DNA from: a virus
IMG/VR virus record: IMGVR_UViG_3300045988_133226
Span: 14,524-78,523 of that record
Strand: one strand, 5' to 3'
DNA length: 64,000 nt
Every line of letters begins with the position of its first letter. Within the stretch, counting starts at the first letter, position 1. The notes beneath the pieces were generated by a model. It searched no databases. It was given only the letters and a program-made list of their open reading frames with translations, and was not told where the DNA came from. Below are positions 27,184-30,885 of the stretch, piece by piece. The position numbers were made by a program, and so were the translations under genes.

Positions 27184-27780
27184 ATGGACGTTAATAAATT
27201 ATTGGTTGTCGTCGATATGCAGAATGATTTCATCGACGGAAGCCTTGGAACCAAAGAAGCACAGGAAATTGTTCCCAAAGTAATTGAGAAAATTAAAAAT
27301 TTTGATGGCATTATTGTTGCAACAATGGACACACACGATGAAAATTATTTATCTACACAGGAAGGAAAGAATCTTCCAGTAAAGCATTGCATCTGCGGAG
27401 AAGATGGATGGCATTTAAATGAAGAAGTTAGAAAGGCATTATTATCGTCAGAGATGTTTTGTCGCAATGACAAGCAAGAAAATGCTATTTGGCTTCTTGA
27501 GAACTATTGTAAAGAAACATTTGGGTCATTAGAACTTATGGACGATTGTTCTGATGAATTCGGTGAAGATGGTCGGTCTCATCCAGAAGATGTTGAAATT
27601 ACCTTAATTGGTCTTTGTACAGATATTTGTGTAATCTCAAATGCAATGTTGCTAAAAGCAGCACTACCAAAAGCAAAGATTATTGTAGATGCTTCCTGCT
27701 GTGCAGGAGTGACGCCAGAGAGTCACAAGAATGCACTTGAAGCAATGAAAATGTGTCAAATTGAAATAATTAATGAATAA
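27184..27780 (+). CDS. pncA: isochorismatase-family cysteine hydrolase, nicotinamidase-like
   Basis: VVVDMQNDF (catalytic Asp), LPVKHCICGEDGW (PncA-type W-P-x-HC-x-G motif), GLCTDICV (catalytic Cys); RBS GGAAGGAGaaaacaATG. Confidence 0.7.
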   Translation: MDVNKLLVVVDMQNDFIDGSLGTKEAQEIVPKVIEKIKNFDGIIVATMDTHDENYLSTQEGKNLPVKHCICGEDGWHLNEEVRKALLSSEMFCRNDKQENAIWLLENYCKETFGSLELMDDCSDEFGEDGRSHPEDVEITLIGLCTDICVISNAMLLKAALPKAKIIVDASCCAGVTPESHKNALEAMKMCQIEIINE

Positions 27781-27794
27781 GGGGGTGATAAAGA

Positions 27795-28631
27795 ATGATT
27801 AGTATTAATGGAGTCCCAGTTGTTCCAGAATCTTTTCCAGATGGAACGCAAAAAATTGATTTTTCGTTAGGCGTGATATCTCAAGAAATCATAGAAAACA
27901 AGACAGTGTATATCACATGGTTATATGAGTCAGATCAAGAGTTATTTTCTTTGTTGTGTATTTCTAAAAATATTAAAGAACATTTTCCGTGGTTACAACA
28001 AGCATTAGTGATGCCGTATATACCAAATGCAAGATTTGACAGAGTAAAAGAGCCAAGCGAATGCTTTACATTAAAATATTTTGCAGAAATTATTAATAGT
28101 CTTGGATTTGTAAGAGTTATTGTAACTGATCCACATTCCGATGTATCTACTGCATTGATTGATCATGTAGAAGTAATCCGTGGAGCATCATATATTACAC
28201 AAACTTGTAGCAAAGTCCTTAAAGCAGAACCATCAAGAAATCTCGTAATTTATTTCCCAGATAGCGGGTCACTAAAAAGATATTCTGAATTTGTATCAGA
28301 TGATTATCCGATTGTCTATGGAATTAAAAATCGTGATTGGAAGACAGGAGAAATTCTTGGTATTGAGATTCATGGAGATACAGATAAATTAGATGAGAAT
28401 ACAGCAATTCTAATGATTGATGATATTTGTAGTAAGGGTGGCACATTCTATTATGGATCAAAAGAATTAAACAAATACGGTTGTAAAGATATGTATTTAT
28501 ATGTTAGTCACTGTGAAAATACAATTCTTGATGGCGAATTATTAAAGGAAGATAGTTTGTTTAAAAAAGTGTATACGACACGTAGTATTTTTACAAAAGA
28601 GCATGAGAAAGTTGAGGTGTTAGATTTATGA
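27795..28631 (+). CDS. ribose-phosphate pyrophosphokinase (Prs)-like type I phosphoribosyltransferase-fold protein
   Basis: PRPP/ribose-phosphate binding loop MIDDICSKGGT (compare DDxxDTGGT of Prs); RBS tAAGGGGGTGataaagaATG. Confidence 0.65.
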   Translation: MISINGVPVVPESFPDGTQKIDFSLGVISQEIIENKTVYITWLYESDQELFSLLCISKNIKEHFPWLQQALVMPYIPNARFDRVKEPSECFTLKYFAEIINSLGFVRVIVTDPHSDVSTALIDHVEVIRGASYITQTCSKVLKAEPSRNLVIYFPDSGSLKRYSEFVSDDYPIVYGIKNRDWKTGEILGIEIHGDTDKLDENTAILMIDDICSKGGTFYYGSKELNKYGCKDMYLYVSHCENTILDGELLKEDSLFKKVYTTRSIFTKEHEKVEVLDL

Positions 28632-30097
28632 AACAGACAAACCCAATGTTATTAATTGATTTTTACAAAGCAGTTCATGCTGAAATGTTACCAAAAGGTA
28701 TTACAAAATCTGTTTCTTATTTTACTCCACGTATGAGCAGAGTAAAACGATGGAATGAAGTAGCCATGTTTGGATTACAAGGATTCATTAAAGAGTATTT
28801 GGTCGATTATTTTAATGAGTATTTTTTCTTTGAATATAAAAACAAAGCAATTGGTACTTATAAGACAGTAATGGATGCAACTCTTGGAGAAGGTACATAT
28901 GGATTACAGAAAATCGAAGATTTATATGATCTTGGCTATCTTCCAATTGAGATTAAGGCTCTTCCTGAAGGAACTTTAGTACCAATGCATGTGCCGATGT
29001 TTAGTATTGAGAATACACATAAAGATTTTGCATGGTTGCCACAGGCATTAGAAAGCTTAATTTCCGCAGAAATGTGGCATCCGATGATTGCTGCAACTGT
29101 TGGACATACATACAGACAGATTGTTAACAAGTTTTATGAAATGACTTGTGATGATGATATTCCAAAATCTAAGGCATTAGGGGCTTTCGATTTTCGTGGC
29201 GAAGAATGTTTACAGTCTGCGATTAAAGCAGGAGCAGGATGGTGTTTATCATTCTTAAATACAGCTACGGTTCCAACAATTTCATATTTAGAGAGAAATT
29301 ATAATTGTGATTGTACGAAAGAACCAGTTGCTTTTGGTAGTCCGTCAACGGAACATGCAGTAGTTTGTAGCAATTATGCAATTGATGGTGATGAAGAGAC
29401 TTTAATCAAAAGATTGCTAACAGAGATTTACCCAAATACAAGTTTTTCTGCGGTATTGGATTCATATGATTATTGGAATGTCGTAGAAAATATTCTTCCA
29501 AAGCTTAAAAATGAGATTATGAATCACAACGGATGTCTTCTTGCCAGAGGTGACTCAGGAGATTGTGTAGACGTAGTAACCAGAACAGTATTCAAATTAT
29601 GGGAAGAGTTTGGTGGAACTACAAATACCAAAGGATATAAAGTATTAGATCCTCATGTAAAAGCAATTTACGGAGATTCAATTACAGTGCAGAGATGTGA
29701 GCAGATTTATGACATCTTAGAGAAAAATGGATTCGCAGCAAACAATGTTGCACTTGGCGTTGGATCATTCTCATTCCAGTGCATCGAAGAAGATGGAGTT
29801 TTAAAACCATTTACAAGAGATACATTTAGCAGTTGTATTAAAGCAACGTATTGTGAGATTGATGGCAAACCATATCCAATTTTCAAGAATCCAAAAGATG
29901 GCGGATTTAAGAAATCTCAGAGAGGTTTATGTCATGTCTATACAGGATCAGACGGTAAATTGACATTTAAAGATGGATATACTTCAGAAAATCTTCCAAT
30001 GAATAACCTGCTTGAGACAGTATTTAGAGATGGCAAATTGGTAAAAGAACAGTCATTACAGGAGATTAGAAGAGTATTAAATGAAGGAGAATTTTAA
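28628..30097 (+). CDS. nicotinamide phosphoribosyltransferase (NAMPT/NadV) family protein
   Basis: LDSYDYWN, ARGDSGD, KGYKVLDPHVKAIYGDS and FKNPKDGGFKKSQRG run parallel to DSYDIYN / RPDSGN / KGYKLLPPYLRVIQGDG / FKDPVADPNKRSKKG of NAMPT enzymes; ATGA overlap with the upstream gene. Confidence 0.7.
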   Translation: MKQTNPMLLIDFYKAVHAEMLPKGITKSVSYFTPRMSRVKRWNEVAMFGLQGFIKEYLVDYFNEYFFFEYKNKAIGTYKTVMDATLGEGTYGLQKIEDLYDLGYLPIEIKALPEGTLVPMHVPMFSIENTHKDFAWLPQALESLISAEMWHPMIAATVGHTYRQIVNKFYEMTCDDDIPKSKALGAFDFRGEECLQSAIKAGAGWCLSFLNTATVPTISYLERNYNCDCTKEPVAFGSPSTEHAVVCSNYAIDGDEETLIKRLLTEIYPNTSFSAVLDSYDYWNVVENILPKLKNEIMNHNGCLLARGDSGDCVDVVTRTVFKLWEEFGGTTNTKGYKVLDPHVKAIYGDSITVQRCEQIYDILEKNGFAANNVALGVGSFSFQCIEEDGVLKPFTRDTFSSCIKATYCEIDGKPYPIFKNPKDGGFKKSQRGLCHVYTGSDGKLTFKDGYTSENLPMNNLLETVFRDGKLVKEQSLQEIRRVLNEGEF

Positions 30098-30114
30098 GAG
30101 AGGAGATATAAAAC

Positions 30115-30885
30115 ATGAGTTTTAATGCAGCAGAAACCAAAGACAGATTAGTACAGTGGATTAGAGATTGGTTTAAAGTTAATGGAAGATGGTGTAATGC
30201 CGTTGTAGGAATTTCAGGCGGTAAAGATTCATCAGTTGTCGCTGCCTTATGTGTCGAAGCACTAGGTAAAGATCGAGTTATTGGAATTATGATGCCACAG
30301 GGTGTGCAGAGTGATATTGAGTATTCTCAGATGCTATGTGATCATCTAGGAATTGAACATTACACAGTTAATATTTTTAATGCTTGCAGAGATATTAAAC
30401 ATGAAATCAGAGATGAATTAGGCGGTAAATGGAGTAAACAGAGTGCCACAAATTTACCTGCTCGTATCCGAATGGCTACATTGTATGCTTTTGCACAGAG
30501 TATGAATGGAAGAGTAGCAAATACATGTAATTTATCTGAAGATTGGGTCGGATATGCAACAAGATATGGAGATTCAGCCGGAGATTTTAGTCCATTAAGT
30601 GATCTGACTGTGACAGAAGTTAAAGCAATTGGTAGAGTTCTGGGACTTCCAACAGAGTTAATCGAAAAAACACCTACTGATGGATTATGCGGTAAGACAG
30701 ATGAAGATAATCTTGGATTTACATATGATATGTTAGACGAATATCTGAGAACTGGAGTATGTAAAGATGAAGCAGTGAGACAGATCATTGACGAGATGCA
30801 TGAGAAGAATGTATTTAAACTTGCTCCAATGCCTAAATTTATATCTGGCATGTGGATCGAGGCAGGAATGGAGTTGGATGATTAA
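30115..30885 (+). CDS. nadE: NH3-dependent NAD+ synthetase
   Basis: PP-loop ATP-pyrophosphatase motif VVGISGGKDSSV near the N-terminus; size (256 aa) and layout typical of NadE; RBS AGAGAGGAGatataaaacATG. Confidence 0.75.
   Translation: MSFNAAETKDRLVQWIRDWFKVNGRWCNAVVGISGGKDSSVVAALCVEALGKDRVIGIMMPQGVQSDIEYSQMLCDHLGIEHYTVNIFNACRDIKHEIRDELGGKWSKQSATNLPARIRMATLYAFAQSMNGRVANTCNLSEDWVGYATRYGDSAGDFSPLSDLTVTEVKAIGRVLGLPTELIEKTPTDGLCGKTDEDNLGFTYDMLDEYLRTGVCKDEAVRQIIDEMHEKNVFKLAPMPKFISGMWIEAGMELDD

Follow-up and report, generated by a model that had tools for sequence, protein, structure and literature searches.

The question raised by the DNA analysed here is whether a phage can rebuild nicotinamide adenine dinucleotide (NAD+) by way of nicotinate. 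The window, as the whole stretch is called below, comprises 64,000 nucleotides (positions 14,524 to 78,523 of the IMG/VR virus record IMGVR_UViG_3300045988_133226) and contains a four-gene cassette that encodes a PncA-like nicotinamidase, a Prs-like enzyme of the Adps type, a Namat-clade member of the nicotinamide phosphoribosyltransferase (NAMPT) family and an NH3-dependent NAD synthetase (NadE). Depletion of NAD+ is among the commonest anti-phage strategies (Thoeris, DSR, SIR2-HerA, SPARSA, Nezha and aRES), and NAD-depleting defences split the cofactor into ADP-ribose (ADPR) and nicotinamide. The phage pathways NARP1, NARP1-AP, NARP2 and NARP3 were described between 2024 and 2026. The reading favored here, with reasonable though far from full confidence, is that the cassette rebuilds NAD+ from the fragments left by NAD-destroying defences, and that it does so via nicotinate and nicotinic acid adenine dinucleotide (NaAD) rather than via nicotinamide.

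The four-gene cassette

The four genes are intact, contiguous open reading frames (ORFs) on the plus strand (Table 1), at exactly the coordinates given in a first-pass annotation of this DNA. That annotation had assigned them to the PncA-like, Prs-like, NAMPT and NadE families; profile searches bear out all four assignments far beyond chance, and the motifs quoted for them (the PncA-type triad and metal site, DDICSKGGT at residue 209 and SGGKDS at residues 34-39) are all present. A Shine-Dalgarno sequence precedes each gene, and the intergenic gaps are 14, -4 and 17 nt, the second being an ATGA overlap between the Adps stop and the Namat start. A scan for promoters and terminators between 26.0 and 33.8 kb returned counts at or below shuffle expectation.

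The PncA-like protein matches the Isochorismatase family (PF00857) at 1.5e-17, and its best matches in the Protein Data Bank (PDB) are nicotinamidases (P. horikoshii 1ilw at 5e-13 and 29iv at 3e-7). Its catalytic triad (D11/K110/C149) and its metal ligands (D49/H51/E60/H68, with H68-C69 lying within KHCICGEDG) show 97% conservation or better across 144 distinct homologues from cassettes. Against the NCBIfam equivalog PRK11609 it scores 32 bits over its N-terminal part only and does not reach the cutoff of 174. The protein belongs to a divergent clade confined to sequences from phages and the gut, and its gene is present in only 7 GenBank phage records.

NadE matches NAD_synthase (PF02540) at 3.5e-57 and scores 190 bits against TIGR00552, for which the cutoff is 63.65. 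It is a single-domain protein whose best PDB matches are short NH3-dependent NadE enzymes (2e18 at 5e-37 and 3fiu at 1.5e-30), and its PP-loop is kept in 139 distinct cassette sequences. Genes for NadE are also found without this cassette in other phages, for example cyanophages, a Pelagibacter phage and Bacillus phage G.

Adps and Namat families

When the middle pair was compared with the Adps and Namat families on the one hand and with Prs, NadV and PncB on the other, Adps and Namat were favored. The NARP1-like layout that the first-pass annotation had proposed holds at the family level, the NAMPT-like enzyme being closest to Namat in both sequence and fold and the Prs-like protein having the features of Adps.

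The Prs-like ORF matches phrog_619 at 2e-66 and scores 88.5 bits against TIGR01251, under the cutoff of 113. It aligns over its full length with the Adps of SpβL1 (36% identity, 140 bits) versus 47 bits with E. coli Prs, and the two validated Adps proteins score less against each other (97 bits) than the window protein does against SpβL1 Adps. Like Adps, it is without the C-terminal region of Prs (278 versus 315 aa). The Adps-type hairpin is present as KNRDWKTGEI (residue 178; pattern K-x-R-x-x-x-TG[DE]I), and the PP loop reads DDICSKGGTF, compared with DDLSSFGGTF in SpβL1 Adps and DDMIDTGGTL in E. coli Prs. The key residues of ICP1 Adps have been described, including the adenine contacts F18 and R87 and a catalytic Lys on the hairpin (PMC13586617), and the equivalents of F18, R87, H121, D161, K185, D212, D213 and F221 are all conserved in the window protein. 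An ordinary phosphoribosyl pyrophosphate (PRPP) synthetase was rejected as an identity for this ORF because of the score under the TIGR01251 cutoff and the Adps-specific features.

The NAMPT-like ORF matches phrog_448 at 9e-157. In HMMER searches its best solved relatives are 9W5X and 9W5W (1e-114), both of which are SpβL1 Namat (PMC12774641), with human NAMPT at about 1e-49; against TIGR01513 (PncB) it scores 19.8 bits versus a cutoff of 297. An AlphaFold2 (AF2) model built from a 40-sequence alignment has a mean predicted local distance difference test score (pLDDT) of 95.2, an earlier 14-sequence version (at least 77% identical) having been discarded at pLDDT 36. Foldseek ranks 9W5X first for this model (TM-score 0.93, root-mean-square deviation 1.6 Å), followed by bacterial NadV (0.90) and human NAMPT (about 0.86). 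The middle pair belongs to the NARP1 families Adps and Namat and not to Prs and NadV. A NARP2 identity was rejected as well, since the enzyme is of the Namat clade, Adps adjoins it and the window has no Nmnat.

Many genes of the Namat family are interrupted by intein-like insertions of 300-400 aa, and some of the proteins have two. The insertions recur at three active-site positions, which are within the catalytic xTEHS, after RPD and after GS[YF] (representative proteins P0158, P0168, P0174, P0178, P0180, P0187, P0200 and P0215, among others).

The pyridine pocket and its covariation with gene content

In crystal structures of Namat, nicotinamide is flanked by F189 and Y15', D215 forms a hydrogen bond with it, and the D215A substitution lowers the activity of SpβL1 Namat about 8-fold (PMC12774641). 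The corresponding residue of human NAMPT, D219, determines specificity for nicotinamide, and human nicotinate phosphoribosyltransferase has a Ser at the same position (PMC7096376, PMC12143786, PMC4442680). The window enzyme keeps much of this pocket: D13/Y15 and F189/R192 of the nicotinamide site correspond to D11/Y13 and F187/R190, catalytic H245 to H243, and R306 of the catalytic core to R307. Three positions are changed. The Asp215 of NARP1 Namats, which makes the amide hydrogen bond, is Ala213; the pocket residue Ala242 is Ser240; and Pro307, which adjoins R306, is Gly308, so that RPD becomes RGD.

The identity of the residue at position 215 covaries with the genes that surround it. Loci were gathered from viral contigs (three scans), species-representative genomes, metagenomes and GenBank phages, neighbours were scored with hidden Markov models built from the cassette proteins, and only distinct sequences flanked by 4 kb or more on both sides entered the counts. 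PncA and/or NadE accompanies the enzyme at 122 of the 123 loci with Ala or Ser at this position (A/S type), and all four genes are present at 115. None of the 95 loci with Asp or Glu (D/E type) has PncA or NadE, none has all four genes, and Adps is the sole neighbour at nearly all of them. A Fisher test of the position-215 residue versus PncA/NadE gives p = 2.5e-62, a value in which independence is overstated by shared descent. The motif around the catalytic His is STEHS in all 93 A/S-type enzymes and ATEHS or ASEHS in all 97 D/E-type enzymes. The linkage of A/S-type enzymes with PncA and NadE survives divergence down to about 40% identity and is found in at least three gene orders (PncA-Adps-Namat-NadE, Adps-Namat-NadE-PncA and Adps-PncA-Namat-NadE). 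It is also found in an unrelated gut siphovirus, phAss-1, which is TAG-recoded (code 15). In a crude neighbor-joining tree, the A/S enzymes with the clamp insertion described below form one deep clade, and insertion-free Ala forms lie between this clade and the canonical Namats.

Two further groups of loci deserve description. In phAss-1 (L378; OQ749652.1, 96860-101298) the order is PncA-Adps-Namat-HAD-like-NadE, with a Namat of the Ala type that has a canonical clamp; its authors listed only a 'nicotinamidase' (PMC10607447), and its NadE and HAD-like ORF are annotated in GenBank as hypothetical. A small clade of Namat homologues has Glu at the amide-recognition position, and at these loci (L154, L158, L183, L189, L199-L201, L205, L218 and L375) the order is reversed to Namat-Adps and there is no PncA or NadE.

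The first-pass annotation had proposed a deamidating twist from the genes present. The pocket speaks for this independently of gene content, as Ala or Ser stands in for the amide-specificity Asp in just those lineages that have PncA and NadE and nowhere else. The same annotation had suggested, as another option, that the phage supplies two alternative routes, which is less well supported because the remodelled pocket would go unexplained. In such an arrangement Adps and Namat would be an ordinary NARP1, and PncA and NadE would boost nicotinate salvage by the host (PncB/NadD). It is true that all four enzymes have ordinary homologues and that NadE occurs in phages that lack the cassette. However, every enzyme linked to PncA or NadE differs at the amide Asp and at two more positions of the pocket, and no others do; PncA would compete with Namat for nicotinamide, and the D215A substitution costs SpβL1 Namat activity about 8-fold; two independent routes are therefore judged very improbable.

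A second possibility is that the Ala/Ser-type enzyme has become permissive, converting nicotinamide to NAD+ and nicotinate to NaAD, which NadE would complete, according to whichever pyridine the host leaves. Replacement by Ala would do away with both the amide hydrogen bond and the force repelling a carboxylate, which makes the use of either pyridine chemically plausible, and the pyridine pool would be mixed in a host with its own nicotinamidase. Yet the presence of a phage PncA in nearly all cassettes argues that nicotinate is the intended substrate, and the correlated A242S and P307G changes suggest a pocket that has been re-tuned and not just loosened, so that this dual specificity seems quite unlikely.

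The adenine clamp and the identity of the donor

The preference of Namat for ADPR-PP (ADP-ribose pyrophosphate) depends on an adenine clamp whose parts are Arg40 of the SCL and the motif of the selectivity-clamp helix (SCH), GS-X-phi-X-phi-X-phi-TRD, with F392 and Y396 of the latter stacking on adenine (PMC12774641). The window enzyme keeps SCL R40 as R38 (TPRMSRV), F392 as F381 and T398/R399/D400 as T396/R397/D398. The equivalent of Y396 is Cys385, directly after which stands an insertion of nine residues, and the strict SCH motif is departed from by this insertion and by Phe at position 3 and Cys at position 7. In the AF2 model the insertion is a confident beta-hairpin (strands 385-388 and 391-394) right after the helix at 381-384.

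Insertion-free relatives of the Ala type (L298-L308 and phAss-1) combine the same pocket changes and PncA/NadE neighbours with a canonical clamp, as in GSYTYQYNTRD and GAYTYQYVTRD (pattern GS[YF]TYQY.TRD). In addition, a macrodomain gene of the ADPR-1''-phosphatase type is present in 46 of 161 A/S cassettes, usually between Namat and NadE, and the profile of this family matches Appr-1-p-processing/ADP-ribose-1''-phosphatase macrodomains and 6lfu. ADPR-PP is probably still the donor in the window enzyme; ADP-ribose is taken as the input because the sister enzymes keep the clamp, ADPR-phosphatase macrodomains are embedded in the cassettes and the accessory repertoire is shared with canonical loci.

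These observations bear on the main rival reading, in which ADP-ribose is not used at all. Here the Prs-like enzyme would make PRPP, the NAMPT-like enzyme would use it to make nicotinic acid mononucleotide (NaMN) from nicotinate supplied by PncA, the NadD of the host would convert NaMN to NaAD, and NadE would finish the synthesis, the whole serving to boost the Preiss-Handler pathway. Such a scheme accounts no less well for PncA, NadE and the Asp-to-Ala/Ser switch, and NadD is universal in bacteria, so that a phage adenylyltransferase would be unneeded. Namat retains activity with PRPP in vitro (PMC12774641), human NAMPT has been crystallised with nicotinic acid and PRPP (6TA0), and the SCH insertion removes the Tyr396 equivalent in the window enzyme. 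On the other hand, the hairpin, PP loop and shortened C-terminus of the Prs-like protein are specific to Adps, and SpβL1 Adps gave no product in a Prs-type reaction in vitro (bioRxiv 10.1101/2024.02.11.579819). The complete clamp of the insertion-free Ala-type enzymes would be needless in a PRPP enzyme, ADPR-1''-phosphatase-type macrodomains are embedded in many cassettes, and the hosts have a Prs of their own. With this evidence in view, the route through PRPP and NaMN is considered unlikely.

Proposed pathway

In the pathway favored here, the PncA-like enzyme would first convert nicotinamide to nicotinate and NH3, and the Adps homologue would convert ADPR and ATP to ADPR-PP and AMP. The Namat homologue, having lost the Asp that recognises the amide, would then join ADPR-PP and nicotinate to give NaAD and PPi without a mononucleotide or an adenylyltransferase, and NadE would convert NaAD, ATP and NH3 to NAD+. 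The net reaction would be that of NARP1 plus one extra ATP, with an irreversible final step and with the NH3 from the first step balancing that used in the fourth. Possible advantages are speculative and include a host PncA that converts nicotinamide quickly, the irreversible last step and an intermediate that is poorly handled by NADases. The first-pass annotation had noticed no adenylyltransferase for nicotinamide mononucleotide (NMN) or NaMN nearby, and a Pfam scan of 88 ORFs in the window, which covers part of a genome of about 160 kb, found no NMNAT, NadD, NadR, PnuC, Nudix or CTP_transf_like family.

One copy of the complete cassette is located in a bacterial chromosome, that of Mogibacterium pumilum ATCC 700696 (L291; NZ_CP016199.1, 1143323-1160792), and its Namat is 76% identical. 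The cassette is surrounded by DUF6138, SUKH-1 immunity-type, Mbeg1-like and TPR genes, and Nudix and NrtR winged-helix ORFs follow it. The idea that this copy belongs to a prophage was dropped, as a PHROG scan of the flanks gave essentially nothing; it is a bacterial, non-prophage version.

The same chemistry might accordingly serve a general recycling of ADP-ribose and nicotinate, as housekeeping or auxiliary metabolism, and not a dedicated counter-defence. In M. pumilum the genes around the copy are not of phage type and a Nudix/NrtR-type regulator comes after it, 43 cassettes are flanked by NrtR-like genes, and bacterial homologues of NARP1 are known (PMC12774641). However, most copies come from phage contigs 130-170 kb long, little free ADP-ribose is available unless an NADase is at work (Osterman preprint discussion), the window also carries two Tad2-like genes, and canonical NARP1 is a proven counter-defence system. 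A role confined to recycling is thus thought improbable.

Several points weigh against the proposed pathway and its role. The observations are of gene identities, family membership, active-site residues, their covariation with gene context, and accessory genes, and every substrate, product and counter-defence role given here is a prediction from them. The tree suggests that the pocket switch arose roughly once and anciently, so that the Fisher p-value overstates independence. A change to Ala at the position that sets specificity may only loosen the choice of pyridine and not reverse it. The nine-residue hairpin of the window enzyme takes the place of the Tyr396 equivalent, which makes a preference for ADPR-PP over PRPP less certain than in the insertion-free sisters. 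Host NadD is available anyway and leaves room for a PRPP/NaMN route, and NadE may, going by its sequence, prefer either NaAD or NaMN. The detour through nicotinate costs an extra ATP with no obvious gain, and removal of nicotinamide could even relieve product inhibition of NADases. Lastly, the presence of at least one copy, that of M. pumilum, among non-phage genes means that the chemistry may serve ordinary recycling too.

Taken more broadly, Ala/Ser-type Namats would be nicotinate ADPR-transferases that, together with a nicotinamidase, Adps and NadE, make up a fourth phage NAD+-rebuilding pathway, widespread in large phages of gut Clostridia and present also in phAss-1 and, beside a Nudix/NrtR-type regulator, in some bacterial chromosomes. 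The balance of evidence tips only slightly in favor of this wider claim.

Accessory genes

Macrodomain, HAD-like and NrtR-like genes accompany both the A/S and the D/E enzymes. In the window the slot between Namat and NadE is empty (30097-30115, 17 nt) and holds no macrodomain gene, while relatives with 97-98% Namat identity fill it, either with a macrodomain (L012 and L027, 9470-9982) or with a HAD-like ORF of 136 aa (L008, L009 and L019, approximately 9470-9880). The HAD-like ORF has no Pfam hit and a weak PDB profile match (2obb, 4.5e-3), its assignment being based on DxDxT/K/DD motifs alone. Since this slot is filled by one or the other in different phages, the two genes may have equivalent functions.

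The NrtR-like genes, which combine Nudix and winged-helix domains, flank cassettes of both enzyme classes (e.g. L257, 5802-6608, and L291, 10341-11446). NrtR regulators respond to ADP-ribose, and their presence suggests that NADase activity could turn the operon on.

Genomic context and hosts

The window is apparently part of a large phage genome, with 103 closely spaced ORFs, of which 99 lie on the plus strand, and a GC content of about 33%. Its near-identical relatives are IMG/VR contigs of 130-170 kb. A megablast search of the cassette against GenBank phages gave no match and no close sequenced isolate. Relatives are found mainly in metagenome-assembled genomes of Lachnospiraceae and other Clostridia from human and animal guts, and also in isolates of Filifactor and Mogibacterium; one close protein is labelled Anaerostipes.

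Conserved genes to which no function has been assigned flank the cassette (Table 1), two of which, phrog_20092 and phrog_20678, travel with it in close relatives only. An SPFH/Band-7 protein with a flotillin domain is encoded two genes downstream of NadE and is kept in the closest relatives (17 loci).

Two tandem genes resembling Tad2 (Thoeris anti-defence 2) lie 12 kb downstream of the cassette. This pair fits with pressure from a Thoeris-type NAD-depleting defence, and the phage appears to combine a signal sponge with the rebuilding of NAD+.

Elsewhere in the window, a TnpB-like protein with OrfB_IS605 and a Cas12f1-like TNB domain is followed by small ORFs on the minus strand; the phage genome has probably taken up an IS605-family element here, beside one of its few strand switches. 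The Pfam survey of the window also revealed a PolIII-alpha-type replicase (PHP, DNA_pol3_alpha and finger domains), a phage integrase, a PemK/MazF-type toxin, a nucleoside 2-deoxyribosyltransferase and a DHH/RecJ-like protein. Two sigma-70-like paralogues, an RlaP-type nucleotidyltransferase and a PcfJ-like protein are listed in Table 1.

Table 1. Positions of the cassette genes, of key sites within Namat and of other features in the window.
Feature	Position	Strand	Remarks
phrog_1735	24148-26217	+	cassette-flanking; 689 aa, 41 loci
phrog_2018	26238-26627	+	cassette-flanking; 129 aa, 50 loci
phrog_20092	26685-27152	+	cassette-flanking
PncA-like nicotinamidase	27184-27780	+	198 aa; predicted nicotinamide -> nicotinate + NH3
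Adps-type Prs-like enzyme	27795-28631	+	278 aa; predicted ADP-ribose + ATP -> ADPR-PP + AMP
Namat-clade NAMPT-family enzyme	28628-30097	+	489 aa; predicted nicotinate ADPR-transferase (ADPR-PP + nicotinate -> NaAD + PPi)
Ala213 codon	29264-29266	+	position of Namat Asp215 and human NAMPT Asp219; HMMER alignment to 9W5X and coordinate check
Ser240 codon	29345-29347	+	position of Namat Ala242 (nicotinamide pocket); changes together with Ala213
SCH region G379-D398	29762-29821	+	GSFSFQC[IEEDGVLKP]FTRD; 9-residue insertion at 29783-29809
NH3-dependent NadE	30115-30885	+	256 aa, without glutaminase domain; predicted NaAD + ATP + NH3 -> NAD+
phrog_20678	30888-31220	+	cassette-flanking
SPFH/Band-7 + flotillin-domain protein	31286-32746	+	486 aa
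TnpB-like protein	38936-40564	+	
Small ORF	40608-40841	-	
Small ORF	41681-41878	-	
Tad2-like gene (PF11195)	42175-42486	+	tandem; 34.2 bits vs cutoff 25
Tad2-like gene (PF11195)	42495-42779	+	tandem; 46.3 bits vs cutoff 25
Weak DHH/DHHA1-like ORF	42779-43732		next after Tad2-like pair
Sigma-70-like paralogue	44523-45074		
RlaP-type nucleotidyltransferase	45071-45904		
PcfJ-like protein	47625-48659		
Sigma-70-like paralogue	51400-51942		

Implications

If the proposed pathway is correct, direct synthesis of NaAD from ADPR-PP would be a new enzymatic reaction, and the Namat clade would contain a natural one-position switch from amide to acid specificity. An annotation rule would follow, in which Asp or Glu versus Ala or Ser at Namat position 215, plus ATEH versus STEH, separates the two types. 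It would also add a version of the pathway dominant in phages of gut Clostridia, a group nearly missing from the isolate-based datasets used to date, and its enzymes could find use in the enzymatic production of NaAD or NAD+. The question raised is why extra ATP should be spent on nicotinate, for which host PncA activity, the irreversibility of NadE and a role of NaAD as a protected intermediate are candidate explanations.

Comparison with known systems

NARP1 consists of Adps and Namat (Osterman et al. 2024; PMC12774641, PMC13586617). The window resembles it in that an Adps-clade gene adjoins a Namat-clade gene in one operon, and the two are alike in the catalytic residues of Adps and Namat, the Arg of the SCL, the equivalent of Phe392, the TRD motif and the accessory repertoire. 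It differs in the replacement of Asp215 by Ala, of Ala242 by Ser and of RPD by RGD, and in the 9-residue beta-hairpin in the clamp helix region. Unlike NARP1, it carries a nicotinamidase and an NAD synthetase, one or both of which accompany 122 of 123 A/S loci compared with 0 of 95 D/E loci, and its predicted product is NaAD and not NAD+. A search for literature connecting ADPR-PP or NARP1 with nicotinate, NaAD, NadE or PncA found none, though most papers in subscription journals fell outside it and the result is hence not proof of absence. A nicotinate/NaAD variant would be undescribed, being assembled from NARP1-type parts with two added enzymes, and the isolate-based datasets of the NARP studies contain almost none of these gut phages.

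In NARP1-AP, which has the arrangement Adps-Adpp-Namat, the macrodomain protein Adpp feeds ADPR into NARP1 (bioRxiv 10.64898/2026.01.28.702374). Both this system and the window cassette are extended NARP1 operons, and the window relatives L012 and L027 carry the ADPR-1''-phosphatase-type macrodomain within the cassette. The window itself is without a macrodomain, however, and its extension consists of PncA and NadE, which the NARP1-AP paper does not mention.

The bacterial Preiss-Handler pathway (PncA-PncB-NadD-NadE) begins and ends with the same enzymes and follows the same deamidated logic. No PncB or NadD is present in the window; Adps and a Namat-type transferase would take the place of both, with ADP-ribose as an AMP-ribose scaffold that is already made.

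NARP2 (Nampt + Nmnat, Vibrio phage KVP40) and NARP3 (PnuC + NadR) share with the cassette the restoration of NAD+ by phage-encoded enzymes. In contrast to both, there is no Nmnat, NadR or PnuC in the window, and the transferase adjoins Adps and belongs to the Namat clade and not to the Nampt clade.

The pocket change has its own counterpart in the switch between human NAMPT (D219) and nicotinate phosphoribosyltransferase (S214), where the same structural position separates type II phosphoribosyltransferases that use the amide from those that use the acid. The switch seen in the window lies inside the Namat clade, and its predicted donor is ADPR-PP instead of PRPP.

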